Numbered from the stretch's first letter, positions 5,566 to 35,529 are shown. The stretch is DNA of 64,000 nucleotides from a bacterium (GCA_963627995.1 CAVGCV010000010.1:954-64953), one strand, 5' to 3'. Notes: generated from the sequence alone by a model not told the origin. Translations and numbers: made by a program.

Positions 5566-5676
5566 AAAAACACTGCGGAGAAGCGTGGGAAATGTCCGCA
5601 GTGAAAACTTTTTTTGTCTGCGGAGAAAAATAATTTTGTCTGCGGAGCGCCGGGATTTTCTCTGCGGAGTTTTTTT
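5566..5676 (+). repeat. Copy 1 of the five-module 22-bp-phased CTGCGGAG intergenic element (module orientation F-R-F-F-F)
   Basis: AAAAACACTGCGGAG (5566-5580), TCCGCAGTG (5595-5603), then TCTGCGGAG at 5617, 5639 and 5661, followed by T7. Spacers are A/T mini-palindromes. Confidence 0.9.
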
Positions 5677-5961
5677 GCGCGTTCCTTGCCGTGTGGTAAA
5701 TCGTTGAAAACAAGCGGTTTCTGCTGATTGTAAAAACTGGGCTTCTCCTCCGCCCGGGGCGCAGGGGCGCTGGCCGCATTGCAGGTGTGCGCGCCGCCTC
5801 GCTCTGCTCAATCGGCCGCAGCGATGGGAGCGTGGAGCGGAAGTGCCGGTTTCTCTGCCATGTTACGCAGCGCAAAAAGAATGACACACGCCGCGCGCGG
5901 GATGTAACTTCGCGGGAACAATCGGGCGTGGCAGGGGAAAGGGGTGTTGGGGCTGATTTCG

Positions 5962-5969
5962 TAATTTTG
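5962..5969 (+). promoter_or_regulatory. -7 promoter box TAATTTTG for the GH43-like/GH115/GH43-CBM6 transcription unit
   Basis: Exact TAnnTTTG match 37 bp upstream of the ATG at 6006. Confidence 0.5.
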
Positions 5970-6005
5970 CAACGGAATCACAATGTGTAAAGCACCAATA
6001 CTGAC

Positions 6006-8075: not shown

Positions 8076-8114
8076 CACCCTGCTTCATCCCGAACATCCA
8101 ACCATCCCAAGCTC

Positions 8115-10670: not shown

Positions 10671-10719
10671 CCCGCGTGCGACACTTCAAACGACACAACG
10701 CAAGAAAAATGCAAGAACG

Positions 10720-12798: not shown

Positions 12799-12844
12799 AA
12801 AAGCTGTGGGGATGTGCCAGAACGACACATCCCCACAGCTTTTT
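12799..12844. terminator. Hairpin terminator B (AAAAGCTGTGGGGATGTG...CACATCCCCACAGCTTTT) after the SusD gene
   Basis: 18-bp perfect stem, 9-nt loop, A/T tracts on both sides, 26 bp beyond the minus-strand stop at 12870. Confidence 0.75.
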
Positions 12845-12869: not shown

Positions 12870-14942
12870 TCACTTCACGTTCCATGCGGGTTTTGTGAAA
12901 TACCAAAGGCCGGTGTTGTGGAGCTTTGAGTAAAGGGCTTCGTTGCGCATGATGGCTGGCTGCGAGCCGTCGTCGGACGCCTGGCGGTTGTCGCGGTCGG
13001 CAATTTTGGAGGCCAGCCAGTCGGTGCCGTCGTAGCCGCTGGCATTCTTGTGGGTCGCCATGCGCACGAGGTCGCTGAACCGGTAGCCTTCGAAAGCAAG
13101 CTCGAGGGCGAGCTCGTCGCTGATGACGTTCTCGACAGCGTTGATGATGTCGGCTTTCGATGCGTGTTCCCAGTCGATTCCTTCGGCTTCCAGCCGTGGC
13201 TTAAAGTCGAACACGGTGCTGTCGTTGTAGCCCGTGATGTTGGTGACGGGCGATTCGGTGAGCGACGGCCATGTGTTGAAGCTCCTGTTGTAGTAGGCCA
13301 AGTATCCGCATCCACGGGCATGGATTCCGTAGTTCTTGTCCCAAATCTCGTCGTTGAAGTCGAGGAAGAAGTTGGCCATTTCGGTGGAGTCGACATAGTG
13401 CATGGCTCCGTTGGAATTGTAGCGGGTGTAATGGACGGTCAGTGTTTCGCTGATGACGGCTCCGTTCTCGTCAAGCAGCGCGTTGCCGTCTTCGTCGAGG
13501 TGTACCTTGGTTTCGGTCTTCACGGCCTTGGTGTCGGGGCAGTTGTTCCTGTTGAGTCCGTCCTTCAGGATGGCAAAGGCAACGGATGGATAGCCGGCGC
13601 GGTTGATGGCCTCGGCGAGGCGCAGCCATACGAGCGACTTGCGGTAGACGGGGATTGAATAATAGAACGTGCGCCCCTTGGCTGCCTTGCAGGCAAGCTG
13701 GTAGGTGTTGCCTTCGTAAACGACGGACTGGGTGGCGGAAGCGTAGCGCGCGTCTCCGCACTCGTAGTCTTCGCGCAGCGTGTTGGTGATGTCCCAATTG
13801 ACATAGGTCTGTGCCTTGTTGATGGACTTGTAGCTTTCGGATGCAAGGACTTGGGCGCGGTAGGTGGGGGTGACGGAGATGGCTCCTGACGTGGAAACAC
13901 TCTCATTCCCGCTTTCGTCGGTGGATACTTCGCTGTCGTTTTGGCGCGAAGATGGCGTGTATCCAAAGATGTCGGCCACGCGCATGAGCATGGTTCCGAA
14001 CTGCTTGTTGGCTGACGACGGAATGATTGTGATGACTTCGGACGATGCGGACTTTGTGTAGCTGGAGGCGAAATTGCCCCATCCGTTCATGGCCGTATAG
14101 CCGTACGGATTGTTGCCGCTGGTTCCGAAGCTGGTTTTTTGTGCAAGGCAGTACTGCTGTGTGGTGTTGGTGGATGTGCCTTGCAGGTAGTCGAAGTAGT
14201 ATTGCGCAGCTTTCCGGTAGTCGCTTTCGTCGTTGCCACGGAGCAGGTAAAGGTCGCCCAGCACGAGGCGGACAGGAAAGAAGCAGAGGCTGGACGAAAT
14301 ATCGACGGCTCCGTTGTTGTAGTTGCCGTAGTTGGGGTAGTCGGTGTCGATGTATCTCGTCAGTCCGAGCGCGAGCAGGCGGTCAAGGAGATTGTCTTTG
14401 TTCACCAGGTTGGCCTGGTAGTTGAAGTTCTTTACCACGTCGAGCGAGGCAATCGGCTCGGAAATGAAGGGCACTTCGCCATACATTTCCACCAGCTTGA
14501 GGTAAGTCCACGCGCGGATGGCTTGCACTTGGGCATACTCGGGGAGCATGAACTTGACATTGTTCTTGACGGCATTGGTGTCGGCGTTGGCAATGTAAAG
14601 GTTGCAGTTGTTGATGACGGCGTAGTAGTCGCTGATGTCGAGCATGGAGCAGCTGCCATCGGACGGATTGTCGAAGTTGGCGATGGCGTGGAGCGTGTCG
14701 GTGACGTATTGCGACGGCGAGCAGAGGTCGCCGCGCACCTCGTTGAGAATCACCTGCCGTTCGGCGATGTCCTGTACGTGCTTGAGGATGCCGAGGTAGG
14801 AATAGAGCGTGTCGTTGGCATTGACATAGATTTTGTCGCCCGTGTCGATGGTGAGCATGTCCTCGCAGGAGGTCGTTGCCAGTCCTGTGCTGCAGAGAAT
14901 GGCAAGAAGGCGTATGATGTTCTTAATTTTCATGACTTTCAT
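12870..14942 (-). CDS. SusD/RagB-family outer-membrane lipoprotein (distal pair)
   Basis: 698-aa ORF trimmed to MKVMKIKNIIRLLAILCSTGLATTSCEDML (lipoprotein signal with Cys). Lies 24 bp downstream of a SusC gene. Length and N-terminal C-E-D-M-L-T pattern are typical of SusD-like proteins. Confidence 0.85.
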   Translation of the reverse strand: MKVMKIKNIIRLLAILCSTGLATTSCEDMLTIDTGDKIYVNANDTLYSYLGILKHVQDIAERQVILNEVRGDLCSPSQYVTDTLHAIANFDNPSDGSCSMLDISDYYAVINNCNLYIANADTNAVKNNVKFMLPEYAQVQAIRAWTYLKLVEMYGEVPFISEPIASLDVVKNFNYQANLVNKDNLLDRLLALGLTRYIDTDYPNYGNYNNGAVDISSSLCFFPVRLVLGDLYLLRGNDESDYRKAAQYYFDYLQGTSTNTTQQYCLAQKTSFGTSGNNPYGYTAMNGWGNFASSYTKSASSEVITIIPSSANKQFGTMLMRVADIFGYTPSSRQNDSEVSTDESGNESVSTSGAISVTPTYRAQVLASESYKSINKAQTYVNWDITNTLREDYECGDARYASATQSVVYEGNTYQLACKAAKGRTFYYSIPVYRKSLVWLRLAEAINRAGYPSVAFAILKDGLNRNNCPDTKAVKTETKVHLDEDGNALLDENGAVISETLTVHYTRYNSNGAMHYVDSTEMANFFLDFNDEIWDKNYGIHARGCGYLAYYNRSFNTWPSLTESPVTNITGYNDSTVFDFKPRLEAEGIDWEHASKADIINAVENVISDELALELAFEGYRFSDLVRMATHKNASGYDGTDWLASKIADRDNRQASDDGSQPAIMRNEALYSKLHNTGLWYFTKPAWNVK

Positions 14943-14966
14943 GTTTTGTGTGGTGGTCAATGGCAA

Positions 14967-17900
14967 TTAGAGGTTGATTTTCACCCCGACATTGAAACTA
15001 CGGTTAAGCGGAAGCATCCCCGTGTCGATGCCTTGGTATAGAACACTGTTTCCGCAGGAGAACTCCGGGTCTGTGCCCGTGTAGCGGCTGATGGTGAAAA
15101 GGTCGTTGCTCTCGGCCCAAACCGTGAGCCCTTGAATCCATGAGAGGTTGATGGGCAATTCGTAGGAGAGGCGGACATTTTTCAGCTTGAGGAAACTTCC
15201 ATCCTCAATCCAGCGGTCGGAGAAACGCTCGTTGTTCACCCAGTCGTCGCTCGTCGTGGCGCAGGCTCGCGGGATGTCCGTCACCTGGTTGTCGACCGTC
15301 CAGCGATTGACGGCGGCAATGGTTTGATTGTAGAAGCCATTGAGCGATTCGAGCTGGCTGCGCTGGTAGTTGTAGATGTCGTTGCCAAGCGAGTACTTGA
15401 AGTTGAAAGCCAGTGTCCACCGCTTGTAGTTGAAAGAGGTGTAGATGTTTCCGTAGATGTCGGGATTGGGGTCTCCGATGATGGTCTTGTCGGCTTCGTT
15501 GATGACGCCCAATCCGTCCTCGTCGTTGAGATTGACGAAACGGACGTCGCCGGCGGAAAAGTTCTTGTATGGATTGTTCTTGATGCCTGTAGGATACTTC
15601 AAGAAGTCATTGCCGTTATAGGCGTGGGACGCCTCCTCGTAGGAACTGAACACGCCATTGGTCTTGTAGCCATAGAACACGCCGACAGGCTGTCCGACGG
15701 CTGTCTGGATTTCTGCGCCATAGATGTTGGTCGTGTAGTCCCCCTCAGGCAGGCTGATAATCTTGTTCTTGTAATGGCCGACGGATGCGCCCAGTTGCCA
15801 GTTGAAGTTCTTGTTGTTGATGACAATGGCATTGACATGGACGTCTGCTCCTACGTTGCGGAGCTTTCCTCCGTTTGTCCAATAGGCATCGAGCCCTGTC
15901 AGGTAGTTGTTGGCTTTCAGCGTAAGCAGGTTGCTGGTGTTGGCCACATAGAAGTCCACTCCTGCTTGGATGCGGTTGTTGAGGAACGAGCCTGCGAGTG
16001 CGGCATTGAAACGGCGCGTTGTTTCCCATTGGATTTCGGGATTCTCGATATTAACCAGTTGCAGGGCGGTGGCTTTCTGCAAGAACGATGACGATTGGAA
16101 GTAGGTGCGTGACACGGAGTAGGGGATGGCGTCGTTCCCGCTTTCGTCGTAGCCCAGCGTCAGCTTCAGGTGATTGATTCCTTTTGCCTTTTGCATCCAC
16201 TTTTCGTTGCTAAGAACCCATCCGAGTTGGAGCGACGGGAAAATCCCCCATTTCACGCCGAACATTTTGATTCCTTCGCTGGTGAACTTCCCAAAGCGGG
16301 ACGATGCCTCGGCACTCAGCGTGGCACTCGCGAAATAGGTGTTCTTGAAGTTGTAGGCACCATGTGCGTAATAGGCAAGGTTGCACCACTCGTCATTCGT
16401 TCCCTCCACGCTGCGGAAGCGAAGCGAGTTCTTCATGTCGGGCATCTTGTCGTTTCCCGTCTTGTAGCCCGTCATGTAGTTGTCGGAATAGGTGTTGCGG
16501 GTGAATCGGAAGCCTCCAAAGGCTTCGGCGTTGTGCGCTCCATAGTTGGCTTGCCAGTTGATGCGGAGGTCTTCGTAGATGGCGGTCTCTTTCCCGAAGA
16601 AACTTTTTACGACGGAGGTTACTTCGCCCAATCCTTCCAGGTTGTAGATGGGCGTTCCTGCCTCGGGCAGGTAGTATTTTTCATTGGTTCGGTTGAGCTG
16701 GTAGGCAAAGCGGTTGGTGACGTTGAGGTGCTTGTTGATTTCCCATTTCGGCATGATGTTGAGGTTGAACTGCGTCACCTCCTGGTTGTTTTTGTTGTCG
16801 CCGTCCCCATTGGCGAGAATCCAATAGGGGTTGGCCAATGCCGTGTTGTTGCCGAAACGGGATGCGAAGCTGAATGGATAGTTGTCGTCATTCACGTATT
16901 TTCCCGCATATACCGAGGATTGGTGCAGCTTGAAGTCGTCGCCTTTGTAATAGCTGTATTTGGAAAGGAATGGCGCTTGAATAAGGCCAAGGACATTGGG
17001 CGACGCAATGGTGCTTTCGCCATAGCTCTCGGCCCATCCGTTGTCTCGCAAGTTGTAGCTTAGGCGCGAATAGGTCACGTCGATTTGTGTCTCTAAGTTC
17101 TGGACGAGCTTGATGTCGGTGTTGAATCGGATGTTCAAGCGGCTGAAGTCGTTTTCTTTGGCCGTGGCGTTGGCGTTGGCGTAGCCTAACGAAAGACTGT
17201 ATTTTGCCACGTCGTCTCCTCCCTGTACGTTCACTTTGTAGTTTTGGGTAAAGGCTGTTCGGTAGAGCCCGTCGCTCCAGTCGGTGTTGTGGTGGTACAT
17301 GGGATACCAGTAATAGTCGGGATTGTCGTTGAGGAACGGAATAGAGTAGGCGGCCGTGGCATTCTTTTGTCCGTATTCAGTCGTTCCGATTATTTCGTTG
17401 AGGTAATTCTTGTACTGGTTGCCATTCATCATCTTTGTGTAGCTTGGTGCAAGCTCAAAGCCTCCAAAAAGGGAAACATTGATTTTTGTGGCCATGCTGC
17501 GCCCGCGTTTTGTGTTGATGATGACCACGCCGTTTCCGCCTCGTGCCCCGTAAAGGGCTGTCGCGTTTTTCAGCACCTCGACACTTTCCACATCCTCCGG
17601 GTCAATGCCTGCGAGGACGTTGTTGAAGAATCCTTCGTGAATGGAAGTGCGGTCGAGCTGCATGTCCATCATCATGCCGTCAAGGATGATGAGCGGCTGG
17701 GCGTTGAGGTTGATGGAACTTAGTCCGCGAATGAACATGGCTGCGCCTTGCCCCTGAAGTCCCGTTCGGTTAATGGTGTGGATGTCGCCGCCGAGCGCTT
17801 TCTCTATGTCGCTGTCAATGGAAATGGCACTCGACATGTTGATGGTGGCTGCTTTGTGGGCTGTGATGGACGTCTTTGGCTGGTAAAATCCTTTGAGCTT

Positions 17901-18275
17901 GCTGCTGTAAATGGCTGCGTCGGGAGCGGCGTTCCCGTCAAATGCGATTTGCAGGTCGTTGTATTCCGGGACGGTCACGTAAAGCGATGTGACAAATACG
18001 GGGACTTTGAGCGTGTAGCGTCCGTCCTCTCCCGTCATGGTGGAGTATCGTCCGTCGTTGAATGCTTGCACGCGCGCCCCATCAACGGGCTGCTTTGTTG
18101 CGGCGTCATAGACGAACCCGCTCACCTCTTTCATCTCGTACTTGGGAGCTCGGGACGTGCGTGGTCGCTCTGTAACGGTGCTGTCGGTTGATTCTTGGGC
18201 CAAGAGTGCGATGGAACTTGACAGCAATAGAACGGCTGCCGTGGCTCTCATAGGGCTTTGGGCTATGTTGAACAT
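14967..18275 (-). CDS. SusC/RagA-family TonB-dependent outer-membrane transporter (distal pair)
   Basis: 1102 aa. CarboxypepD_reg-like N-terminus (VSGFVYDAATKQPVDGARVQAF...GRYTLKVP), plug region (AMFIRGLSSINLNAQPLIILDG), and long beta-barrel. Confidence 0.9.
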   Translation of the reverse strand: MFNIAQSPMRATAAVLLLSSSIALLAQESTDSTVTERPRTSRAPKYEMKEVSGFVYDAATKQPVDGARVQAFNDGRYSTMTGEDGRYTLKVPVFVTSLYVTVPEYNDLQIAFDGNAAPDAAIYSSKLKGFYQPKTSITAHKAATINMSSAISIDSDIEKALGGDIHTINRTGLQGQGAAMFIRGLSSINLNAQPLIILDGMMMDMQLDRTSIHEGFFNNVLAGIDPEDVESVEVLKNATALYGARGGNGVVIINTKRGRSMATKINVSLFGGFELAPSYTKMMNGNQYKNYLNEIIGTTEYGQKNATAAYSIPFLNDNPDYYWYPMYHHNTDWSDGLYRTAFTQNYKVNVQGGDDVAKYSLSLGYANANATAKENDFSRLNIRFNTDIKLVQNLETQIDVTYSRLSYNLRDNGWAESYGESTIASPNVLGLIQAPFLSKYSYYKGDDFKLHQSSVYAGKYVNDDNYPFSFASRFGNNTALANPYWILANGDGDNKNNQEVTQFNLNIMPKWEINKHLNVTNRFAYQLNRTNEKYYLPEAGTPIYNLEGLGEVTSVVKSFFGKETAIYEDLRINWQANYGAHNAEAFGGFRFTRNTYSDNYMTGYKTGNDKMPDMKNSLRFRSVEGTNDEWCNLAYYAHGAYNFKNTYFASATLSAEASSRFGKFTSEGIKMFGVKWGIFPSLQLGWVLSNEKWMQKAKGINHLKLTLGYDESGNDAIPYSVSRTYFQSSSFLQKATALQLVNIENPEIQWETTRRFNAALAGSFLNNRIQAGVDFYVANTSNLLTLKANNYLTGLDAYWTNGGKLRNVGADVHVNAIVINNKNFNWQLGASVGHYKNKIISLPEGDYTTNIYGAEIQTAVGQPVGVFYGYKTNGVFSSYEEASHAYNGNDFLKYPTGIKNNPYKNFSAGDVRFVNLNDEDGLGVINEADKTIIGDPNPDIYGNIYTSFNYKRWTLAFNFKYSLGNDIYNYQRSQLESLNGFYNQTIAAVNRWTVDNQVTDIPRACATTSDDWVNNERFSDRWIEDGSFLKLKNVRLSYELPINLSWIQGLTVWAESNDLFTISRYTGTDPEFSCGNSVLYQGIDTGMLPLNRSFNVGVKINL

Positions 18276-18353
18276 AATGGAGGGTTGTTATTTGGGGAGA
18301 GAAAAAGGCTTCTCTCTGGTTTTTCACTTCTGTTGATGGTCGTAAGGATGCGT

Positions 18354-20159
18354 TTACTCCTCTTCGCTGATTTTCGGCACGAGTACGATTTTCTCGATGA
18401 GCAGCTCGTTGGTGTAGAGGTTTCTCTCGCTGCTGGGGCGATAAGACTGGAGGGTCAGCGTGGCGTATGCATAATCGGACAGGCCGTAGTAGCACACGGG
18501 AAACTCGAAGTCCTTGGCCAGCAGCACGCTGTCGCAGTAATGGAATTGGTTGTTTTCATCCACGTAGGGCTCTTTCGTATAAAAGTCTCTCGCCTTTGTC
18601 GTGGGGTCTGTGTACAAAACCTCATTTTTAGTCTTGCTGGATGTCCCGTCATGGTAGGTCATGGTCGCACGAAGGCGGTAGGGCCGCTTTTCGTCGTTGT
18701 TGTAGGCCATGACGGCATAGACGTCATATTTGCAAGAGAGTGTGTTGTGGAGAGCGAACGTGACGGTGTTGTTGACTGTGTAGTTCGCACCCGGCGCTTT
18801 CAGAACAGAGATTCTAATCACGGTGTCGCGAGGTGTGACGATTGTCTTTTCTACCCCGTCTTGCATGACTTGTTCTTTGATGTAGTATGTGTATTTTACA
18901 TTGAGGCGTTGTACACTTGGTCTGATGCATCGGCTATATGTCTCACAATAGTATGCGTTGTAAACTTTTTCTTGTGCCCAAGTGTCCTCTGGTGAAAAGT
19001 TGTAATTGTCCACCACATAGGCATAGCCGTTGCTAAGGACGACGGGTTCGACCTTGTCAAACAGCCTTGCACTTTGAGGGTCTTGGAACACCTTGCCGAC
19101 AGTGTTGGTCAAAGAGTCGCATTTCCCCTCTTGCGAAAAGTCCGTATATGAATGCCCGTATTGCTCGTTCACGTTGAATGTTAAGTTGCGCGTGATGACG
19201 TCTTTCACATTGTATCCCGTGATGGAGTCCAATTCTGCATCCGAGAATTTCTTGGTTCTTGTCTCCTTTGTCTCTGTTCCGTCGGACGCAATGGATGTGA
19301 CGACGCTCTGTGAATATTCGGGCATATACTTGTAATACTTCGCAATTTCCTCGTATGCGGCATCCCATGCCTTGTTGGTGGGCATAACCATTGCATAGAG
19401 ACTGTCCTCGCGATTGAGATGGGCTCTCATCTCGTTGGTAAGGTAAGTGTTCCTGATGGTCGTTACCGAGTCGACCCATGTGATGTTTCCGTCGATGGTG
19501 GGTCCTTGGGTGCTGGCGTCTTCATCGAAAGCAAGCTCTTCGTTCTCTTTGATGAATGCGTTCAGCGAGTCGATGCCCTGGCCGTCAGAAAGGTATTCGT
19601 AGAGATTGGGCTGGTATTCGATCGCTCCGTCCGTGACGTGGAGAACCCCATTCGATGTGCCGATGTTGTGTTGAATAATCTTTTGCCCTTTTATGGTGGC
19701 GTTCCCGCAATCAAAGACGGCTGTCTTGCTGTTGAAGAGGGCAAGCTGTGTGGCATTCCCACCCATGAGCAGATGGCTGAAACGTGTCATGCAATTTCGA
19801 ATGAGTTCTTTTTCAACCTTATAGGCGCTCGACTGCGTCTTGTCGTTGAGCAGGGCGTTCCATCTCTCGTAATCGAATGTGCCGTTTTGAGGTACCCACA
19901 AGGTGAATACCTGGTCGTGATTCAGCAAATCAGCATACGTCTGTGACGTTGTGCTTCCTTCCGATTTTGAATAATGGACTCTCGACAGAATGTCGGCAAA
20001 CTCACTGAGATTTTTTTGCGAGGATATATTCTCCCACAAGGTGGTGCGTCTGGCAACCTCGGGGTCGATGGTGAAATGGTCGTCGGAGCAAGACTGGCCG
20101 CAGAGCATGGATGCTGCCAAAATTGTGCCTGTGCACCATTTGAAAAAACTTTTATTCAT
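18354..20159 (-). CDS. Fasciclin (FAS1) domain lipoprotein
   Basis: 601 aa. Signal plus lipobox (MLCGQSCSDD). FAS1-like signatures NLSEFADILSRV...VFTLWVPQNGTF...SNGVLHVTDGAIEYQP. Confidence 0.75.
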   Translation of the reverse strand: MNKSFFKWCTGTILAASMLCGQSCSDDHFTIDPEVARRTTLWENISSQKNLSEFADILSRVHYSKSEGSTTSQTYADLLNHDQVFTLWVPQNGTFDYERWNALLNDKTQSSAYKVEKELIRNCMTRFSHLLMGGNATQLALFNSKTAVFDCGNATIKGQKIIQHNIGTSNGVLHVTDGAIEYQPNLYEYLSDGQGIDSLNAFIKENEELAFDEDASTQGPTIDGNITWVDSVTTIRNTYLTNEMRAHLNREDSLYAMVMPTNKAWDAAYEEIAKYYKYMPEYSQSVVTSIASDGTETKETRTKKFSDAELDSITGYNVKDVITRNLTFNVNEQYGHSYTDFSQEGKCDSLTNTVGKVFQDPQSARLFDKVEPVVLSNGYAYVVDNYNFSPEDTWAQEKVYNAYYCETYSRCIRPSVQRLNVKYTYYIKEQVMQDGVEKTIVTPRDTVIRISVLKAPGANYTVNNTVTFALHNTLSCKYDVYAVMAYNNDEKRPYRLRATMTYHDGTSSKTKNEVLYTDPTTKARDFYTKEPYVDENNQFHYCDSVLLAKDFEFPVCYYGLSDYAYATLTLQSYRPSSERNLYTNELLIEKIVLVPKISEEE

Positions 20160-20199
20160 ATTGGTCTTGTTTTATCGTAGGGAAATAAGATTTCTTCCT

Positions 20200-22257: not shown

Positions 22258-22261
22258 GAGC

Positions 22262-24070
22262 TTAATTTGTTTCGTCGATTCTTGAAGTGTTCTTTGACGT
22301 CTCCCACACCTCGTTTTGGTGAAGTAGCGTGTTGTTCCTCATCTGGTAGGTGTAGATGGGGGAGAAGAGCGACTTCATGGAGGCCAGTTTCGCCATGACC
22401 GCTTTCTTGTTGTCGTTGTATTTCCTAATGAGAAGTGTCAGCATCTCAACCGTGTTGCCTCGACGTTGTGCATAACGGACGAGGTCGAACCATCGCTTCC
22501 CCTCGCCAAAAAACTCGCGCTGGCGTTCAGCCATGACCAGGGACTCGATGCCATCGGGCGTGTTGAATGCTTCAAAGTTGAGCGAGTCTGCAGCCGCTGG
22601 TTTGTTGAGGTAGGCATAGGGGTTGGAGCGTCTGAACACTTCGCGCACCAAGGCGAAAGCCTCTTTCAAGTGTTCTTCGTCAGAGTAGAGTTGGCTCATG
22701 GCCTCGGCCTTCATCAGTACGACATCGCTTAGTCGATAGACAATCCAGTTGGCGGAGTTGGGGAGAGAGCGAGTGGTCGAAGTTGCCGAGATCGCATTGT
22801 TGTCGTTCATGCCCGACCCGCTTGTGCTCGTTTGCCAATAGTGGGAATAGGTGTATTTTGCCATGGGGAAGTCCGTTTGGTCTGCTCCCGTGTAGCGCGC
22901 GGTCTCCCATTTTCTGTAATCTGTTTTTGTGAACACGTGCCCGGGGATAGGGGCATTGGGGCTTTCATCAACGCCCTCTATGATGTTGTTGGAGCAAACC
23001 AATGTCCCGCTCTTCACTTCCTTGATGTTCCAAAAAAGACTGGTCAGCATGGTGTTGGCGTCGTTTGTCCCGTCTAATTGGAGCTCGAAGATACTTTCGC
23101 GTGAGTTGCCTGTTCCAAAAATGGACGTATAAGGGGTTTCGCCATCGAGATACCCATACGTCGAGGCGGATGAGGCGTTCTGTATGAACAGGTCGCTCAA
23201 AGAAACCTCATCCACTCCGCCAATGACTTGGCCGCTTTTGTTGATGGATTTCTTGTAGTCTGCCAACATCTGTTCAATCACCCAGTCGCAGCATTCCACG
23301 CATTTCTGGTAGTCTTCTTCGGCAGGCGACCCCTTGGCCTCCGACATTCCAGCCTTGTAGCTGGCGCGCCAAAGATACACATCGGCCAGCAGCGTATAGA
23401 CCGACTTTTTGGTAATCCGACCTTTGTTCTTGGCGTTGGTGCCGTAGTCGTTCATGGCGATGTCCTTGGCTTCCTCCAAGTCCATGATGATGCTGTCGAG
23501 TACTTCTATTTGTGTGGATTGGGGCAGGCGTAGGTCCTGGCCATTGTTGTTGTAGTCGATGGTGACGTAGGGGATTTCCCCAAACGTGCGGACGAGGTAG
23601 AAATGGCTGAGGGCTCGCAAAGCCAACATCTCGGCTTTGATGGGCTTCCAGTCGCCGACAGAGAAACTTTCATCTTTTGCGATAATTGCATCCCCATGGG
23701 CGAGCACCTTGTTGCAATAGTTGATTTCATTGTAGAAGTCCGTCCAGTCGAACATTCCGTTGGTCGGGAGCAGGTTGGCGTTCATGAGGTTGGTCACATC
23801 GTTGTTGGTGACTCCCGAGTTCTTCTCGAAGTTGTCGGAGCGCATCTCCCCCCACTGAATGTACTTCACGAGCAAGTCCTCTTTGACGAGGCGGCCATAA
23901 CAGGCGTTCACAGTGTTCAGAAGGTCGTTCTTGTCCTCCCAATAGTCTTCCTCCACAATCCTGTTGGTCGGCGTAATGGTGAGGAAGTCTTCGCAGGAAC
24001 AGAGTGTGGCATTTGCGGCCACAGCCATTGTTCCATAGAGGAATATGTTTTTTATGCTATGATACTTCAT
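22262..24070 (-). CDS. SusD/RagB-family outer-membrane lipoprotein (proximal pair)
   Basis: 602 aa. MKYHSIKNIFLYGTMAVAANATLCSCEDFLTITP lipoprotein start. YWEDKNDLLNTVNACYGRL and WGEMRSDN blocks are typical of SusD-like proteins. Directly follows a SusC gene. Confidence 0.9.
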   Translation of the reverse strand: MKYHSIKNIFLYGTMAVAANATLCSCEDFLTITPTNRIVEEDYWEDKNDLLNTVNACYGRLVKEDLLVKYIQWGEMRSDNFEKNSGVTNNDVTNLMNANLLPTNGMFDWTDFYNEINYCNKVLAHGDAIIAKDESFSVGDWKPIKAEMLALRALSHFYLVRTFGEIPYVTIDYNNNGQDLRLPQSTQIEVLDSIIMDLEEAKDIAMNDYGTNAKNKGRITKKSVYTLLADVYLWRASYKAGMSEAKGSPAEEDYQKCVECCDWVIEQMLADYKKSINKSGQVIGGVDEVSLSDLFIQNASSASTYGYLDGETPYTSIFGTGNSRESIFELQLDGTNDANTMLTSLFWNIKEVKSGTLVCSNNIIEGVDESPNAPIPGHVFTKTDYRKWETARYTGADQTDFPMAKYTYSHYWQTSTSGSGMNDNNAISATSTTRSLPNSANWIVYRLSDVVLMKAEAMSQLYSDEEHLKEAFALVREVFRRSNPYAYLNKPAAADSLNFEAFNTPDGIESLVMAERQREFFGEGKRWFDLVRYAQRRGNTVEMLTLLIRKYNDNKKAVMAKLASMKSLFSPIYTYQMRNNTLLHQNEVWETSKNTSRIDETN

Positions 24071-24113
24071 GGGATTGGTTTTTACAGCTTTTTCAATAGG
24101 TATGTAAGGAGCG

Positions 24114-27100
24114 TTAGAATCCTAAAATGGCACTAAGCGTAAAGGACTTGGGGCGTGGGGTCTTGGAGTTGTCGTAGCATACGCCCCAGCTTCCATAGGA
24201 GACTTCCGGATCAACCCCCGTGTACTTTGTCCAGCAGAACAGGTTGTTGGCCGAGGCAGAAAGCCTCAGGCTCTGTATGCCGAAGTTCTTGCAGACTTTT
24301 CCCGGCAGATTGTAGCTCAACTGGCAGTACTGCAAGCGGAGGAAGTCTCCCTTTTCCACATAGCGGTCGTTCCCAAGTGCGTTGTAGGAGTCCCCGATGC
24401 CCGAGTTCATGGCGCGGGGAATCTCTGTGATGTCCCCGTTCTTGCGCCATCTCCAAGCTACGGCCTGGCTTTGGTTGCTGTTCGACCGCATGGACTCGTT
24501 GTTCAGACGGGCCAGGTTCACGATTTTATTGCCAAGGCGGTAGTTGAACGAGAGTTTGAGCGTCCAGTCGCCATAGAAGAAATTCAGTCCGAAACCACCG
24601 TTGAACTTAGGATTGGAGTTTCCAAGATACACGATGTCGAGTTCGTTGATTTGTCCGTCGTGGTTGATGTCTTCATAGATGACATCGCCACCCTTGAACT
24701 CGTAGTTCGTGCCGCCATAGTTGAAGTACATCTTCAGCGGATTTCCCTTTGAATCGTAGAGGATGTTCCCGTTTGCATCGGTCACGATGGGACACGTGTA
24801 GTTCTCGCCGCGTTCACGGGCTGCCGCCGCCGTCTTGTCCCCGTATGTGTTGCGGGAGTCAGCCGTGTATCCGCTGTGTTCATAGTCGTAGCGATAGACA
24901 CCCTTGTAGCGGAATCCATAGATGGAGCCGACGGCATTCCCAATCTGGATGCGTTGCAGGTATGTCCCGTTTTTGTAGTCGTAGTCTCCATTCATGGAGG
25001 AGAGGACGGTCGGATCCATGGCTTTTATCGTGTTGATGTTCTGCGCGATGTTGAACGATGCCGACATGGAGAACTTGCCTTTCTTCAGGAACTTCTTGGT
25101 GTTGGCATAAAGTTCCCATCCCTTGTTCTCCAATTCTCCGACATTTTTCCAGGCCAGCGAGCCGTAGCCCGTTGAGCCGGGAATGCCGACGCCTGCCATG
25201 AGCAGGTCTTTTGTCCTCTTGTTGTAGATGTTGATGTCGAATTGGAACAAATCCTCAAAGAGGTTGAGGTTGAAGCCGAGGTTCCAAGAGTCTGTCGTCT
25301 CCCACTTGAGGTCTGTCAGGCGCAGGTTCTGTGGATTGATGGCGCTGTTGTCGTTCCAGCTCCCATAGATTCCATAGTTCCCGTAAGTGTTGTACATCAG
25401 GTACTCGTTTTGGGGCGGCCGTCCTACGCGTCCCCAGTTTGGACGGAAAGACAGGAGGCTGACATACTTGGTGAGCGGCGCAAAGAACGGTTCGTCGCTG
25501 ATGTTCCACCGGGCGGAGAATGCCGGGAACGTTCCCCACTTGTTGCCGGCTCCGAACTTTGTGGAGCCGTCGTGGCTGACCGTCGTGTCGAACGAGTAGC
25601 GTCCGTTTTTGTAGGCGATGTGAAAAGAGCCCCGGAGTGCCATGTCCCTCCATTCGCTGGTCCCCGACCCCGTGTTGGTCAAGTAGGCATTGGCGATGGA
25701 TGACTCTATGCCTGTCGGAACGCCTGTGTGGCCCACATTCTGGCTTGTTCCGTTTCCCTGTTTAATTTCATAGCGCAGCATGGCGCTGCCGCTCCAGTCG
25801 TCGTTGTTGAAATGTGGCGTGAAGAGAAGCGTCTCGCGATTCGTGATGGCTAGGCTCTTGTATTCACTATTGGATGTCGCATTTACGCCCGAGGACCACG
25901 CGTCGGTTGTCAGGGCATTGGAGTAATAGGTGTTGACCGACTCGTTGTAGATGTCCATATAGACTTCGGCGTTGAGGTCGAGCTGGTGTTGCGAGTCATC
26001 CTTGCCCAGCAGCTTGTAGCGGAGGTTGAATTGCGGTGTGATGCGGTAGGTCGATTGGTTGTTGTAAGCCAAATTGGCAATGGCAACGGGATTCCCGTTC
26101 CGCTTCATGTCGCTCAGGTATTTTGACGAGTATCCATCGGGCGTGCTTCCTTCCGCGTCGTACGTGGGCAGCATCTTGTAGTATTCGCCCGTTTGGTAGG
26201 CTGTCTGGGTGATGGGGTCGTAGGCGTATTCGTAGATGCTCATGTTCGGCATGGCATTGTATGCCTTTCCCAGGATGGATTTTGTGGAGCCTCCGTCCCA
26301 GTTCCGGTGGTTGTCGGTGTAGGTGAGGGCGAAGTTCGTGGAGAAACGGATGCGGTCGCTCACGTCGTAGTCGAGGACGAGGCGGGTGGAGAACCGGTCG
26401 AGCGTCTGCTTGATGATGGTGCCTGTTTGATGGTCGTAGCCGCCCGAGATACGGAACTTCGCTTTTTCTCCGCCGCCCGTGAGCGTCACGTAGTAGTTGT
26501 GCGTCTGTCCGAACTGGTTGACGGCGTCCACCCAATCCGTGTTCTTGTTGAAGTTGTAGTAGTAGGCGGGACGGCTCTTGTCGTAGTTCAGCTCCACCAT
26601 ATTGGACGTGGCGGAACTCTGTTTTGGATTAAAGTAGGCCTCCTTGAGCATCATGGTGTAGCCGTCGCCGTCGAGCATGTTCAGTCCCGATGGAGACCAT
26701 GAGCCTGTGAAGCGATAAGAGAAACTGATTTTTGTCTTTCCGCTGATACCGCGGCGAGTGGTAATCTCGATAACGCCGTTAGCACCCTTCGCTCCCCAAA
26801 TCGCAGCCGAAGCCGCGTCCTTGAGGACCTTGATTTCCTTGATGTCCTCGGGGTTTACGGAAAGCAGGGTGGCGAATTGCTCCTCGTTGTCGAGGTCTTC
26901 AAAGTTTACTTCCGAAACGTCGTCGGGCAAGTCGAAGATGTTGCCATCCACCACGATGAGCGGCTCGGCGCTGCCGTTGATGGTGCTGACGCCACGCATT
27001 CGCATGCTTGTGCCTGAGCCCAGGTTTCCCGAGTTGGAGATGATGTCAAGTCCGGCAATCTTTCCTTGCAGGGCCTCGTCGGCGGATGCGAACGACAGTC

Positions 27101-27524
27101 CCTCCACATCGTCCATGCTCATGGTCTGTGTCGCCATCGACACCTCCTTCATCGGGATGGTCAGTCCGTTGCTTTGCACTTTTGGCGTGGCAGTGACGGT
27201 GACGGTCTGAAGTGTCAGGTTGTCTTTCATCTTGATGTCGAACTTCGTCTGGTTGCCAATCGGAATGCTGACTGTCTGGTAGCCGATGTAGGAGATGGTG
27301 AGCTTGTTCTTGGGATTGACGATGACCAGCGAGAAGTTTCCGTTCATGTCGGTCACCGTTGCCGACACGATGCGGTTGTTCGCGTCCCGCTCCACCACAT
27401 TTGCCATCATCAGCGGCTCGATGTCGTCGTAAACATGGCCCGTGACGCGCCGTTGCTGGCAAAAGGCCTGAGTGCAGAGCGTTAGAAACACTGCGAGGGT
27501 CAGTATATGCTTAAGGTTATTCAT
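24114..27524 (-). CDS. SusC/RagA-family TonB-dependent outer-membrane transporter (proximal pair)
   Basis: 1136 aa. Signal peptide, CarboxypepD_reg-like VTGHVYDD...NGNFSL, plug ALQGKIAGLDI...MRMRGVSTINGSAEPLIVVDG, C-terminal aromatic residue (..ILGF). Confidence 0.92.
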   Translation of the reverse strand: MNNLKHILTLAVFLTLCTQAFCQQRRVTGHVYDDIEPLMMANVVERDANNRIVSATVTDMNGNFSLVIVNPKNKLTISYIGYQTVSIPIGNQTKFDIKMKDNLTLQTVTVTATPKVQSNGLTIPMKEVSMATQTMSMDDVEGLSFASADEALQGKIAGLDIISNSGNLGSGTSMRMRGVSTINGSAEPLIVVDGNIFDLPDDVSEVNFEDLDNEEQFATLLSVNPEDIKEIKVLKDAASAAIWGAKGANGVIEITTRRGISGKTKISFSYRFTGSWSPSGLNMLDGDGYTMMLKEAYFNPKQSSATSNMVELNYDKSRPAYYYNFNKNTDWVDAVNQFGQTHNYYVTLTGGGEKAKFRISGGYDHQTGTIIKQTLDRFSTRLVLDYDVSDRIRFSTNFALTYTDNHRNWDGGSTKSILGKAYNAMPNMSIYEYAYDPITQTAYQTGEYYKMLPTYDAEGSTPDGYSSKYLSDMKRNGNPVAIANLAYNNQSTYRITPQFNLRYKLLGKDDSQHQLDLNAEVYMDIYNESVNTYYSNALTTDAWSSGVNATSNSEYKSLAITNRETLLFTPHFNNDDWSGSAMLRYEIKQGNGTSQNVGHTGVPTGIESSIANAYLTNTGSGTSEWRDMALRGSFHIAYKNGRYSFDTTVSHDGSTKFGAGNKWGTFPAFSARWNISDEPFFAPLTKYVSLLSFRPNWGRVGRPPQNEYLMYNTYGNYGIYGSWNDNSAINPQNLRLTDLKWETTDSWNLGFNLNLFEDLFQFDINIYNKRTKDLLMAGVGIPGSTGYGSLAWKNVGELENKGWELYANTKKFLKKGKFSMSASFNIAQNINTIKAMDPTVLSSMNGDYDYKNGTYLQRIQIGNAVGSIYGFRYKGVYRYDYEHSGYTADSRNTYGDKTAAAARERGENYTCPIVTDANGNILYDSKGNPLKMYFNYGGTNYEFKGGDVIYEDINHDGQINELDIVYLGNSNPKFNGGFGLNFFYGDWTLKLSFNYRLGNKIVNLARLNNESMRSNSNQSQAVAWRWRKNGDITEIPRAMNSGIGDSYNALGNDRYVEKGDFLRLQYCQLSYNLPGKVCKNFGIQSLRLSASANNLFCWTKYTGVDPEVSYGSWGVCYDNSKTPRPKSFTLSAILGF

Positions 27525-27537
27525 GTTCTGGTTGAAG

Positions 27538-30471
27538 TTATTGGGTAATACGATACTTGTGCAAATACCTGCGCGCGGAGGCCGCGTCCGTCCAGTCGGA
27601 GTCGTAGCGTCCGTTGGCCAAAGTCTTGTAGTTCAACACGCCGTTGATGCCGTGCATGACAGCAAACGAGGACGCGGATATGCGGTTCGATGAGATGATG
27701 TAGTCGCGGACGAGGACATTCTTGAAGTTGTTGTCCACGCCGTATGTCTCATTCGTCGCGTCTCTCACGCTGAGCGTGTTGTTCCCGCTGGAAAAGACTT
27801 TCACCTTGCAATAGATGCCGGTCGCGCTGTTGAGCGTTGCCGTTTCGTATTCGCTGGTGCTGATGGCCGCCTTGTCGGCGAAGATGGAGTTGTCCTGGAA
27901 ATGGTATTTGATGAAGTTGATAAGGGTCGTCACCATCGCGGAGGCTTTTTGGAAGCGTTCGATTTCCTCCGCCTCTGAATATTCCGTGCGGTCTTCGGGC
28001 TCTTTGTCCAGCTCCAAATACGACCGGATGCTTTCCCATGTGGGCAGTCCCTTTGCAATGGCCTGCTCAATGGCCTCGTTGGATGGTACATACACCGTGT
28101 AGCGGTAGTTGTTGAAGAAACGGACGTTGGTGGCTGTGGCCACTCGCGTTCCTGTCTTTTGGTCATAGCAGGGGATGCCTCCGTTGTTCTTGAAGATGGC
28201 GAAATGCTCCTTGTAGTCGTTGTCGCTTGGATAGAGGCGTTCGGTGGTAGAGCCTTCTTGCAGCGGGTTCAGGTAGGTCTTCAGTATGTCGAGAATCTCG
28301 TCGTTGTCTGCAAGGCAAAGCTCCAGGAATTTTCCATATTTGTCTTGGTTGTTGTACAGCGCGCTGTACACGGACTCTATGGTCGGGACGATGGGCGCGT
28401 CTATTTGGTAGGCCATCCCGTTGCCGTTGCCGTTTGTCTCGCGCGTCTTGTCGTCGAAGCGGATGACCGAGCACCCCTCTTCATGCTGCATTCCCCAGCC
28501 GCCTTTCACGGTCATGCCGTTGCTGCGGCTCGTGGCGTTCTCCACGAATACGGGGGCGCCGTTTTTTGACAGGAAGTAGTGCTGGTCGCACTCCACGCCA
28601 GTTGCGGTCTCGTCAATGCCCGTCGTGCTCGTGTGGTCTTCGTGCACAATCGTATGGGTCTCCAGTATGTCGTTGAGGCGGTCGTAGAGCTCGTCTGTTG
28701 TTGCCGCCTGGTTGCCGGATAGGGGGGTGTTGGTGTCGATTTCGTAGGAGCCGGTTGCGAAATCATAGGTGAGGGGGTAGGATGTGCCCCTCACGGCGTT
28801 GGTCCGGTCGTTCCATTCAAAATAGATGGCGCGTAGGCGGTCGGTGCCCAGGCTGAACGAAACGGGGTCGATGTACCAGAAGCCGTCTTTGGGGACGAAC
28901 AGGCTGAACCGCGAGCTCATGGCGAGCAGGTAGGCGTAGAAGTTCTTGGCCGCCCCGTTCCATTTAAGCTGTTGGATGGCGTAGCGCATGACCCTCATGT
29001 CGTCGCTGACGTACGACGGCGCCGACACGGCCGCGTACTGGGCAGGGGTGAGCACCTCGTCCATGAGGTAGATGATGCCATTGTTGGCCAGCAGCACGGT
29101 CTTGATGCGCTCTATATGCGTCTCGTCGAGCATGGGGTCGAGCGCGTCGTCCTTGATGCTCTCGAACTTGCTGGGGACGGCCTCGCAGAATTCTTCTTTC
29201 ATCAAGTTCCTAAGGAGGGCCTGGATGACGTTCCTCGGGATTTGGTCGATGGCGCGGTAGATGTTCTCAAGGTCCTGCTCGTTTTTCACGTTCTTCATTT
29301 CCTCTGGCGCGTAGGCTTCCAGCAGAAACTTTCCGCCGCCGTTGTCCGCGAAGAAATAATCGTAGAGGCGGGCGTCCGTCGGTACGAAAATCACCGCCAT
29401 GTCCTGCTCCTTGCTAATCTTGTTGTTGGGCTGATAGGTGTTCCACCCGGGGTCGAAGGCCAGTCCGTAGTCTACCGTGTTTCCGTTCGGGTTGCCCACG
29501 GGGTCGGTGCCTTTGTCGTTGGTAAGAGAAAAGTTCTCCAAGACGTTGAAATAGCGCTTTTCAAAGACGGAATCGACGTCGTTGCCATACAGCAGGCGGT
29601 AGCGGCTGGTGAGCGACGCGCTGTAGAAAGGGGCGGAGAAGCGGTCGAGCATGTGGCTGAAAATCTTGGTCGCCCCGTTCGTGCGGAGCACTTCCGCCAT
29701 GTTCTGCGGCGTGATGAGCACTTTGTCCAGCTGGTTGATGTAGCCGTTCTGGCAGGTGATGTCCTGCTGCAGCACCTTGCTGTCGTAGATGTAGGCGTCG
29801 TTATGGTCGCGCGTTTTTCCGACGATGATCCTGAAGTCCTCGTCGGTGATGCGCTTGTTGCTCATCTGCGTGGCGAGGAAGTGGGTCATCATCGGCGGCG
29901 TGTTGTCGAGGGCAAGGTAAATCCCCCCCTTGGCGGGGGTGCGGAAACGCGCCCAATAGTCCTTGTCTTCCGCGTTGTAAGAGGTGGGCAGTTCATCGGC
30001 GCTGAAATGGGGGACTGAGTCGAGGACATCGGCGGCGGTCTCCCGGCGCAGGCACTGGCCGGCGTTCGGCCCCGTCGTGCTCGACATCATTTCGATGAGG
30101 TAGGCGTTGTTCACCATCGCGGAGTTCAGAATCAGCTTCTTTTGATTCTGCGTCAGCTGGCTGTAACTGCTCACCCCCCAGTCGTTGTTGGCATAGAACG
30201 TGCTGAACGCGTCGTCGTTGGCCACGAACAATGTCTTGCTGCCAGTCTTGTCCAGCACTTCCGAATAGCCCAAGTCGTCGATGAGTTTGACGAAGTTGGT
30301 GTAGTTCCCGTCTTTTTGCAGGTAGTCGTAGATGCTGGAGTTCAGATAGCCGGGCGTGGTGTCGTCCCATTTATAGTCATCCGAACATGCGCAGAACATA
30401 CCGCAAATTGAAACGACGCACATGGCCTGAGACCACGAACGCCCCAGTTTACACAGGTGTTTGTCCTTCAT
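27538..30471 (-). CDS. Large multi-repeat fasciclin (FAS1) domain lipoprotein, first gene of the operon
   Basis: 977 aa. Lipoprotein signal (ICGMFCACSDD). Repeated FAS1-like signatures: YDYLQKDGNYTNFVKLIDDLGY...KTLFVANDDAFSTF; NGYINQLDKVLITPQ; MAEVLRTNGATKIFSHMLDRF; NGIIYLMDEVLTP; YTVYVPSNEAIEQAI; HGINGVLNY. Confidence 0.75.
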   Translation of the reverse strand: MKDKHLCKLGRSWSQAMCVVSICGMFCACSDDYKWDDTTPGYLNSSIYDYLQKDGNYTNFVKLIDDLGYSEVLDKTGSKTLFVANDDAFSTFYANNDWGVSSYSQLTQNQKKLILNSAMVNNAYLIEMMSSTTGPNAGQCLRRETAADVLDSVPHFSADELPTSYNAEDKDYWARFRTPAKGGIYLALDNTPPMMTHFLATQMSNKRITDEDFRIIVGKTRDHNDAYIYDSKVLQQDITCQNGYINQLDKVLITPQNMAEVLRTNGATKIFSHMLDRFSAPFYSASLTSRYRLLYGNDVDSVFEKRYFNVLENFSLTNDKGTDPVGNPNGNTVDYGLAFDPGWNTYQPNNKISKEQDMAVIFVPTDARLYDYFFADNGGGKFLLEAYAPEEMKNVKNEQDLENIYRAIDQIPRNVIQALLRNLMKEEFCEAVPSKFESIKDDALDPMLDETHIERIKTVLLANNGIIYLMDEVLTPAQYAAVSAPSYVSDDMRVMRYAIQQLKWNGAAKNFYAYLLAMSSRFSLFVPKDGFWYIDPVSFSLGTDRLRAIYFEWNDRTNAVRGTSYPLTYDFATGSYEIDTNTPLSGNQAATTDELYDRLNDILETHTIVHEDHTSTTGIDETATGVECDQHYFLSKNGAPVFVENATSRSNGMTVKGGWGMQHEEGCSVIRFDDKTRETNGNGNGMAYQIDAPIVPTIESVYSALYNNQDKYGKFLELCLADNDEILDILKTYLNPLQEGSTTERLYPSDNDYKEHFAIFKNNGGIPCYDQKTGTRVATATNVRFFNNYRYTVYVPSNEAIEQAIAKGLPTWESIRSYLELDKEPEDRTEYSEAEEIERFQKASAMVTTLINFIKYHFQDNSIFADKAAISTSEYETATLNSATGIYCKVKVFSSGNNTLSVRDATNETYGVDNNFKNVLVRDYIISSNRISASSFAVMHGINGVLNYKTLANGRYDSDWTDAASARRYLHKYRITQ

Positions 30472-30592: not shown

Positions 30593-30600
30593 CAAACTTA
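30593..30600 (-). promoter_or_regulatory. Candidate -7 promoter box TAAGTTTG for the FAS1/SusCD operon
   Basis: + strand caaactta, reverse complement TAAGTTTG, 122 bp upstream of the ATG at 30471. A second candidate (TACCTTTG) is at 30726-30733. Confidence 0.4.
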
Positions 30601-30893
30601 ACAAAAATAAACACGCCGCGAAACTTTGTCCGCCACGTAGCGCGCGATTTTATATTATTTAACATTTTGCGCGGTCGCGGATTCCGCGCTCCGCCGTCTG
30701 TGCCGCGCTGGCGCTATGGCGGCGACAAAGGTAGGGGATGGTGTCCGGCCGGGGTGATAGGATTGCTTCCCCAACCTCCAAATATCGTGATTGGCGCATT
30801 TTTCCCCCTCTTTTCCTCATTTTTCCCGCCTACCGTCTCCGCTGGCTCTGGAATGTGGCTGTGGAGGCGGTGCTTGCTGCGGCGGTAAAAGGA

Positions 30894-30931
30894 AAAGGCT
30901 GCAAGCGGAGAAGTCTCTGCTTGCAGCCTTT
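30894..30931 (-). terminator. Rho-independent terminator after the 976-aa hydrolase gene
   Basis: AAAGGCTGCAAGC / GCTTGCAGCCTTT 13-bp stem with a 12-nt loop. A T-rich run follows on the minus strand. Lies 45 bp past the stop at 30976. Confidence 0.7.
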
Positions 30932-35527: not shown

Positions 35528-35529
35528 AC

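Follow-up and report, generated by a model that had tools for sequence, protein, structure and literature searches.

What might an operon with two SusC/SusD transporters, three fasciclin (FAS1) lipoproteins and neither an enzyme nor a regulator of its own take up, and what would its FAS1 proteins contribute? The question is raised by a stretch of bacterial DNA of 64,000 nucleotides (GCA_963627995.1 CAVGCV010000010.1:954-64953, here called the window), in which the original prediction placed a tandem SusC/SusD operon at positions 12870-30471. Its seven genes lie on the minus strand in the order FASa-SusC1-SusD1-FASb-FASc-SusC2-SusD2. That they constitute a conserved Sus-like import operon we regard as nearly certain. 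The fuller account, a single-operon, two-transporter system of Sus-like glycan import with FAS1-based surface glycan-binding lipoproteins, is the one that we favour, with slightly better than even confidence.

The open reading frame (ORF) listing agreed with the predicted number, direction and lengths of the genes, including a last gene of about 690 residues (Table 1). The susD2 ORF spans 12870-14966 and would encode 698 residues if counted from a TTG codon; its start is most likely the ATG at 14942, which gives 690 residues, and a near-identical database protein has the same length. The intergenic gaps, in gene order, are 13, 43, 4, 40, 78 and 0-24 bp. Adjacent susC and susD genes, the operational definition of a Sus-like polysaccharide utilization locus (PUL), occur twice (gaps of 43 and 0-24 bp), with TIGR04056 and SusD Pfam scores above cut-off. 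Each of the three remaining proteins scored above the gathering cut-off of Pfam Fasciclin (PF02469, 22 bits) and has a lipobox cysteine, as had been claimed for both the domain and the lipoprotein signal. Scans with Pfam and NCBIfam profiles found no glycoside hydrolase (GH), lyase, peptidase, hybrid two-component system (HTCS) or sigma/anti-sigma gene among the seven, again in line with what had been read by eye.

In all five predicted lipoproteins the lipobox cysteine is followed by acidic residues (C-SDD, C-KENIDDSD, C-SDD, C-ED and C-ED; the lipoboxes FCAC of FASa, LCSC of SusD1 and TTSC of SusD2 are followed by SDD, EDF and EDM, respectively), which are invariant or nearly so among orthologues. 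Acidic residues just after the lipid-anchor cysteine are the Bacteroidota signal that routes lipoproteins to the cell surface. Because the lipobox cysteine and the conserved acidic residues match this export signal, all five lipoproteins are predicted to be surface exposed.

Table 1. Features of the seven-gene locus and its surroundings in the window (aa, amino acids; CAZyme, carbohydrate-active enzyme; CBM, carbohydrate-binding module)
Feature	Coordinates	Strand	Description
FASa	27538..30471	-	977 aa; four tandem expanded FAS1 domains; predicted surface lipoprotein; Pfam Fasciclin 52.1 bits
SusC1	24114..27524	-	1136 aa; SusC/RagA-type TonB-dependent transporter; TIGR04056 E 5.6e-202, TIGR04057 signature; Plug, CarbopepD_reg_2
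SusD1	22262..24070	-	602 aa; SusD-family lipoprotein; SusD-like_3 E 1.7e-21, SusD_RagB E 7.4e-20
FASb	20200..22257	-	685 aa; predicted surface lipoprotein; two FAS1 and C-terminal beta-jelly-roll; Pfam Fasciclin 47.4 bits
FASc	18354..20159	-	601 aa; predicted surface lipoprotein; one Pfam-supported FAS1; Pfam Fasciclin 29.0 bits
SusC2	14967..18275	-	1102 aa; SusC/RagA-type TonB-dependent transporter; TIGR04056 E 8.3e-175; Plug, CarboxypepD_reg
SusD2	12870..14942	-	690 aa from ATG 14942; divergent SusD-family lipoprotein; SusD_RagB 28.4 bits
Promoter motifs	30593..30609	-	two overlapping Bacteroidetes-type -7 motifs (TATTTTTG, TAAGTTTG), ~130 nt before the FASa start codon
Putative terminator	12799..12843		perfect palindrome with an 18-bp stem (100% complementary), AAAA/TTTT flanks, 27 nt past the susD2 stop
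Hairpin	30884..30928	-	terminator-like (GGCTGCAAGC...GCTTGCAGCC and T-tract), after the GH-A-like gene
GH-A-like protein	30976..33906	-	976 aa, secreted; Pfam Glyco_hydro_cc (PF11790) 66.4 bits; 504 bp upstream of the operon, same strand
CAZyme cluster	819..12408		outside the operon; genome-specific; Pfam, NCBIfam
GH97	819-2795	-	Pfam/NCBIfam
GH2, GalA/GalB-like	2920-5298	-	Pfam/NCBIfam
GH43-like secreted protein	6006-8075	+	689 aa; no Pfam/NCBIfam match; TerARA GH43 (PDB 9no3) E 1e-27
GH115	8115-10670	+	Pfam/NCBIfam
GH43+CBM6	~10720-12408	+	B. subtilis arabinoxylan arabinofuranohydrolase 3C7G, E 6e-87

A scan of one genome per species yielded 216 stretches encoding FASb relatives, 80 of which were compared with the window proteins by tblastn. 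The identical seven-gene order was found in 50 of these 80 species-level loci, a further 11 were consistent with it but were ended by contig edges, and half-cassettes were seen only at contig ends. The carriers are uncultured metagenome-assembled genomes labelled Prevotellaceae or Bacteroidaceae, from cattle, sheep, goat, buffalo, deer, yak, horse and human gut samples. Among the 50 same-order genomes the proteins have diverged to 40-75% identity, with the median orthologue identity to the window ranging from 76% for SusC1, the most conserved gene, down to 41% for FASc, the fastest-evolving one; the median gap is 11-39 bp in every interval. Such an arrangement is far beyond chance, and as at least 23 contigs that were assembled independently share it with the window, the window is not a chimera. 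An lpxD-lpxC/fabZ-lpxA-miaA block, in which a gene with a PRiA4_ORF3 domain precedes miaA, adjoins the cassette or, as in the window (34487-39177), the GH-A-like gene upstream of it; this block was found in several diverged genomes too (loci L081-L085, L087, L018 and L050 of the comparison). This shared neighbourhood is a conserved chromosomal anchor and suggests vertical inheritance. The cassette is an old unit, vertically maintained.

For the CAZyme genes on the left (819-12408) the G+C content at third codon positions (GC3) is 0.79-0.95; the cassette has 0.64-0.81, with its minimum in the middle genes, and the right-hand housekeeping genes (34487-51145) span 0.56-0.87. Recent horizontal transfer was considered in view of the lower G+C of the cassette and is unproven, the housekeeping GC3 being equally variable and the lpxD-lpxC/fabZ-lpxA adjacency being found in several genomes.

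The two SusC/SusD pairs were described originally as paralogous complexes, a description that had to be given up: SusC1 and SusC2 are 26% identical, the alignable part of SusD1 and SusD2 is limited to 177 N-terminal residues (29%), and the three FAS proteins have only FAS1 motifs in common. SusD1 matched both SusD Pfam families and solved SusD homologues in the Protein Data Bank (PDB), and the SusD_RagB score of SusD2 is just over the cut-off of 23.1 bits. No STN domain was detected by Pfam in either SusC protein. By these comparisons the two pairs are old, distinct and co-inherited.

Given this divergence, one might ask whether two independent PULs and a stray FAS1 gene are merely adjacent here, especially as FASc and susC2 are 78 bp apart, the widest spacing inside the operon in the window, with a small hairpin in between. 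The same order in 50 genomes with such diverged proteins, the lack of half-cassettes away from contig ends, a median FASc-susC2 gap of only 25 bp that is not systematically larger than the others, and strong promoter and terminator signals at the two outer ends make this a highly improbable explanation. Nor does the earlier division into modules of FAS gene(s) upstream of each susC-susD hold, as it is arbitrary: FASb and FASc stand equally well in the position of surface glycan-binding proteins (SGBPs) of the first pair, with FASb starting 4 bp after susD1, and the gap statistics reveal no internal boundary. The hairpin in the FASc-susC2 gap (18276-18353; AGAGAGAAGCCTTTTTCTCTC) lacks a T-run and the length of this gap is not conserved; it may act in RNA processing or stability, or mean nothing.

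At the outer ends, the candidate transcription signals agree with a single unit. TAnnTTTG is the established -7 consensus of Bacteroides promoters, and 48 of the 50 loci have it in the 400 nt before FASa, compared with 9.0 ± 2.6 in shuffles; the two overlapping motifs in the window probably mark the start of the operon. This census took the place of a scan with the sigma-70 promoter model, which is wrong for Bacteroidota and gave 7 matches where 11 were expected. The palindrome past susD2 would act as a bidirectional intrinsic terminator at the end of the operon, and the hairpin upstream of the promoter motifs is likely to separate the GH-A-like gene from the FASa promoter; this gene appears to be separately transcribed. 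The convergent intergenic region beyond susD2 (12409-12869) holds two near-identical palindromes with A/T flanks (AAAAGCTGTGGGG...CCCCACAGCTTTT), one at 12799-12843 after susD2 and the other at 12441-12483 after the GH43+CBM6 gene, with more inverted repeats at 12619-12726. They have the appearance of a bidirectional terminator that has been duplicated, or of a small repeat.

The accessory lipoproteins were next compared with known folds. As originally proposed, FASa contains at least four FAS1 modules: its AlphaFold2 (AF2) model (pLDDT 81.9, pTM 0.74) matched the four-FAS1 proteins TGFBIp and periostin by Foldseek (E 1e-16, ~935 columns) and no other fold, and H1-like motifs occur four times, at residues 80, 360, 523 and 792, in domains that are each expanded to ~210-230 residues. 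The FASb model (pLDDT 85.4, pTM 0.80) comprises a FAS1 pair at about residues 45-440, with Foldseek matches in the PDB to periostin, TGFBIp and insect fasciclin I (E 1e-12 to 3e-10), and a C-terminal region at about residues 480-685, with matches to CBM35, CBM6, the MiXBM entry 7ehg and Cry-toxin domain III (E 2e-4 to 2e-3). As modelled, this C-terminal beta-sandwich resembles CBM6/CBM35. The architecture of FASb is retained across its large family (279 representatives of 50%-identity clusters at E ≤ 1e-30, with full-length matches down to ~30% identity). In FASc, the N-terminus aligns with that of FASb (hhalign probability 97%, E 4e-11), and a second H2 motif (SNGYAY) and a second H1 motif (PTN..AW), both conserved in orthologues, suggest that it holds a second FAS1 module; the ~200 residues beyond the FAS1 part have no assigned fold. 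Among the FAS proteins hhalign found only the first FAS1 domain, the other repeats and the C-terminal domains being too diverged for profiles. PDB sequence searches gave distant eukaryotic FAS1 proteins only and no solved close relative of FASa or FASb, and no NCBIfam model was found for FASa, FASb, FASc or SusD2.

The gene position of FASb and FASc is the canonical one for SGBPs, downstream of susD1, and at the sequence level both have the lipobox and conserved acidic residues of a surface lipoprotein encoded beside susD. From the CBM6/35-like sandwich of FASb we infer an SGBP role, which would correspond to that of the SusE/F-positioned proteins of other PULs and of the accessory lipoproteins of utilisomes. 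The suggestion that the FAS1 lipoproteins are surface capture components is thus plausible and is strengthened by the FASb sandwich, with glycan binding itself a prediction. A fold survey of 2007 groups FAS1 with soluble-ligand and sugar-binding beta-grasp domains (PMC1949818).

The locus was also described as having no enzyme. This is true of the seven genes, within which no CAZyme of the kind that belongs to a full functional PUL was found, but the GH-A-like protein is encoded immediately upstream, and in 24 (by phmmer) to 27 (by profile) of 44 related loci the gene directly upstream on the same strand belongs to its family, of which another genome has a member two genes away. It is the one recurrent enzyme partner of the cassette, and the original prediction had not singled it out. 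The protein has weak PDB matches to GH39 beta-xylosidases and to GH128, and its catalytic motifs NEP (E287) and TEW (E394) are kept in three full-length homologues; at the level of motifs, the putative acid/base Glu in NEP and the putative nucleophile Glu after strand 7 agree with clan GH-A. Two features were noted upstream of the cassette in L003 and 12 further loci, and at 6678-9557 in L086 and 6439-9594 in L087: many homologues of the GH-A-like protein have an H-type-lectin-like region, a domain familiar from GalNAc-binding eukaryotic lectins, and an interposed neighbour of 1051 residues has a weak DUF642-like N-terminus. Both regions may be clues to the substrate.

On the other side of the operon, the CAZyme set of the window fits the debranching of arabinoxylan-like or arabinogalactan-like glycans. 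With an AXH-like GH43+CBM6, a GH115, a GH43-like protein, a GH2 and a GH97 as neighbours, the substrate here may be a plant cell-wall glycan that contains arabinose, xylose or galactose. The PDB match of the 689-residue protein is a termite-gut GH43 arabinofuranosidase/xylosidase, and the strand of its gene was set by GC3 and gene calls; an equally long antisense ORF at 5808-8078, like other antisense ORFs across the high-GC left flank, was rejected as an artefact by the GC3 test. The GH43+CBM6 ORF is listed from a TTG at 10591, where it overlaps the GH115 gene, and the methionine of MDKHVLFSV… (~10720), with a signal peptide, is the more likely start. The flanking hydrolases had been taken to be secreted by the type IX secretion system (T9SS), for which no support was obtained: neither whole proteins nor isolated C-termini matched the sorting domain (Por_Secre_tail PF18962 or TIGR04183), even at permissive thresholds. 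By eye only, and with no profile match, the last ~45 residues of the GH-A-like protein (…PGIYIVRAGGKIAKILVK) and of the GH43+CBM6 protein (…GRGVVLRRTVLGDGTACTEKVRF) resemble such a C-terminal domain. In other genomes the downstream neighbours include DUF5013 proteins (8/44), GH28 (4/44), GH2 (3/44) or a GH51+GH2+GH2+GH31 series, and CBM6 is also among the carbohydrate-active neighbours in some of them.

Taken together in the account that we favour, transcription would start from the promoter ~130 nt upstream of FASa and give a transcript of ~17.8 kb, ending at the hairpin 27 nt past susD2. The gene products are, by profile, two distinct SusC TonB-dependent barrels and two SusD lids and, by profile and predicted fold, three FAS1 lipoproteins. 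In FASb, and by motif in FASc, the FAS1 pair would form a stalk near the membrane anchor with a beta-sandwich at the distal end (CBM6/35-like in FASb); these two proteins would serve as SGBPs that catch the substrate and pass it to SusD and SusC, and FASa would be an extended capture arm or scaffold of four FAS1 domains. Import through SusC would be driven by TonB. Initial cleavage would probably take place outside the operon, by the upstream secreted GH-A-like enzyme and by genome-dependent enzymes of the cell or the community, and periplasmic exo-enzymes would complete the breakdown.

A number of observations weigh against this account. Co-transcription of the seven genes as one unit, although predicted from the signals above, is read from sequence only. 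Well-studied FAS1 proteins bind proteins (integrins, matrix) or hydrophobic ligands, not defined glycans. No CBM-like domain was found in FASa by Foldseek of its model, FASb has no CBM match in Pfam, and the CBM6/35-like similarity of its C-terminal domain is moderate (TM to target 0.5-0.6) and structure-only. In 18 of the 80 loci a FASb-like gene (38-61% identity) stands alone, with no SusC/SusD within ≤10 kb or contig reach. In the literature searched, which leaves subscription journals mostly outside, neither work on the structure, binding, genetics or expression of such FAS1 proteins nor a description of the seven-gene cassette was found; likewise, as the original prediction had stated, no defined ligand was found there for a FAS1 protein in a Sus-like system. 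The CAZyme set of the window is not conserved across genomes, several long contigs have only housekeeping, efflux or signalling genes and no CAZymes as neighbours, and no HTCS, SusR-like or extracytoplasmic function (ECF) sigma/anti-sigma gene, of the kind that a PUL with a linked regulator contains, was found among the window ORFs scanned, which do not include every small ORF. The absence of a recognisable regulator had also been noted by eye, and within the same range of ORFs it was borne out; HTCS-type domains adjoin the cassette in only a few related loci.

Part of this evidence would suit FAS1 lipoproteins that are adhesins or scaffolds, tethering the cell to plant, host or microbial surfaces or holding the SusC/SusD pairs, with SusD1 and SusD2 recognising the substrate. 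FAS1 is classically a cell-adhesion domain, the nearest PDB structures are those of periostin, TGFBIp and fasciclin I, FASa consists purely of four FAS1 domains, and the FASb-like genes that stand alone do so amid housekeeping or unrelated genes, suggesting a function independent of a transporter. However, in at least 50 genomes the three FAS genes are strictly co-inherited with both SusC/SusD pairs at gaps of 4-40 bp, and FASb, with its CBM6/35-like distal domain, stands together with FASc in the SGBP gene position. We therefore consider adhesion or scaffolding an unlikely principal role.

Another part bears on the nature of the substrate. SusC/SusD-type systems for peptides exist (RagAB), and the operon might import a nutrient that is not, or only partly, a glycan, such as a peptide or glycopeptide or a hydrophobic or cofactor-like molecule, with FAS1 as the ligand-binding module. 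Such a role would fit an operon without an enzyme or a carbohydrate-sensing regulator and genomes with CAZymes on neither flank, and carotenoids or other small molecules are the ligands of some FAS1 proteins; AstaP is among the Foldseek matches of the FAS models, as is CupS. It fits less well with the recurrent GH-like upstream neighbour and its intact catalytic motifs, with the CBM-like domain of FASb, and with informative neighbours that are CAZymes and include no recurrent peptidase. In addition, an Rfam scan of 12300-34500, including the leader, gave no riboswitch or other meaningful element, so that no riboswitch points to a cofactor-type ligand. We judge a non-glycan substrate to be quite improbable. 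What does follow from the CAZyme-free flanks of many genomes is that a supply of enzymes in trans by neighbouring genes, as had been suggested, is genome-specific: CAZymes adjoin the cassette here and in some other genomes, and many genomes have none in the flanks.

The proposed glycan import by this operon can be set beside known systems. With the canonical Sus-like PULs and utilisomes of B. thetaiotaomicron (starch, levan and dextran) it has in common adjacent susC and susD genes, surface lipoproteins after susD, the export signature and CAZymes nearby. It differs in that FAS1 domains make up the accessory lipoproteins, in place of the SGBP folds described elsewhere (the Ig-like/beta-sandwich SusE/F type and others), one accessory gene precedes susC, there are two SusC/SusD pairs, and the operon has no enzyme or regulator; the complex, moreover, is a predicted one. 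Tandem susC/susD pairs are found in the xylan clusters of Prevotella/Segatella and Bacteroides, such as xus of P. bryantii B14 and PUL17 of S. copri (PMC11784079). As in these clusters, two pairs are co-conserved, and probably co-transcribed, in Prevotellaceae, and the neighbours in the window are xylan side-chain enzymes (AXH-like GH43+CBM6 and GH115). In contrast to them, two FAS1 genes stand between the pairs and a third lies ahead of both, the enzymes of the neighbourhood are not conserved across genomes, and no xusE, GH10 endo-xylanase, GH5_21 or HTCS gene, which would mark a Xus-type locus, was found in or beside the operon.

Outside Sus-like systems, FASa shares its predicted architecture of four tandem FAS1 domains, with H1/H2 motifs, with TGFBIp (beta-ig-h3), periostin and insect fasciclin I. 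Unlike TGFBIp and periostin it is a bacterial lipoprotein, with 12-14% identity to them, no EMI/cysteine-rich N-terminal domain and a nutrient-transporter context. The bacterial proteins MPB70/MPT70 of M. tuberculosis and Fdp of Rhodobacter have the FAS1 fold (weaker Foldseek matches, 1nyo and 1w7d), but are small, secreted and single-domain, without a lipid anchor, CBM-like domain or transporter linkage. Databases carry FAS1 genes of SusC/D loci as "fasciclin domain-containing protein", and one is drawn in the figure of a hemicellulose-type PUL of Gramella (PMC4891872), which places a FAS1 gene in a SusC/D locus beyond the present lineage, as an annotation only and as one FAS1 gene rather than a seven-gene cassette.

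The novelty of the locus we rate as moderate. What is new is the FAS1-built accessory lipoproteins in a widespread cassette with two SusC/SusD pairs, and what is known is the PUL- or utilisome-like working, the tandem pairs and the structural diversity of SGBPs. As SGBPs of diverse structure and tandem pairs are already familiar, a PUL specialist would not be astonished. To our knowledge, the FAS1 fold has no defined role in any Sus-like system and few defined ligands anywhere in bacteria. Prevotella-type bacteria are dominant in the rumen and in many fibre-eating human guts, and the substrates of most of their uptake loci are not known; a cassette carried by 50 or more species-level genomes probably matters ecologically. 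Identification of its substrate would annotate a large family, widen the repertoire of surface glycan-binding architectures and could explain the use of an enzyme-free, regulator-free SusC/SusD operon, for example for scavenging products freed by others. A bolder proposal, which we put forward as doubtful, would make the FAS1-repeat lipoproteins a new structural class among utilisome components: an ancient adhesion domain would have become the capture and hand-over device of a dual SusC/SusD system, which would need no enzyme in its operon because it scavenges a specific oligomer, plant-derived or other, freed by a GH-A-type enzyme or by the community. Should the FAS1 domains themselves, and not the CBM-like tail alone, bind the ligand, a ligand and a mechanism would be defined for the first time for bacterial multi-FAS1 proteins, and this would, if true, also serve as a model for ligand recognition by FAS1 arrays of the TGFBIp/periostin type.

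Some loci of the comparison depart from the common arrangement. In L092 (GCA_045640545.1) a single FAS gene lies between susD1 and susC2, and GH51, GH2, GH2 and GH31 genes follow; in L080 two FASb-like genes and a GH43-like stretch are found upstream of FASa-susC1. The loci in which a FASb-like gene, an orphan paralogue, stands alone are L012, L047, L060-L062, L064, L066, L068-L072 and L074-L079, with two such genes in tandem in L069; the neighbours in L012 and L060 are GH88, peptidases, a CCA-adding enzyme, cyclophilin and DPP-IV. Records labelled Roseburia sp., Lactococcus garvieae, Bacteroides thetaiotaomicron and Anaerovoracaceae (L057, L064, L071 and L072, respectively) carry Prevotellaceae-type loci or FASb-like genes of ~40% identity, probably because the source assemblies mis-binned or mislabelled these contigs.

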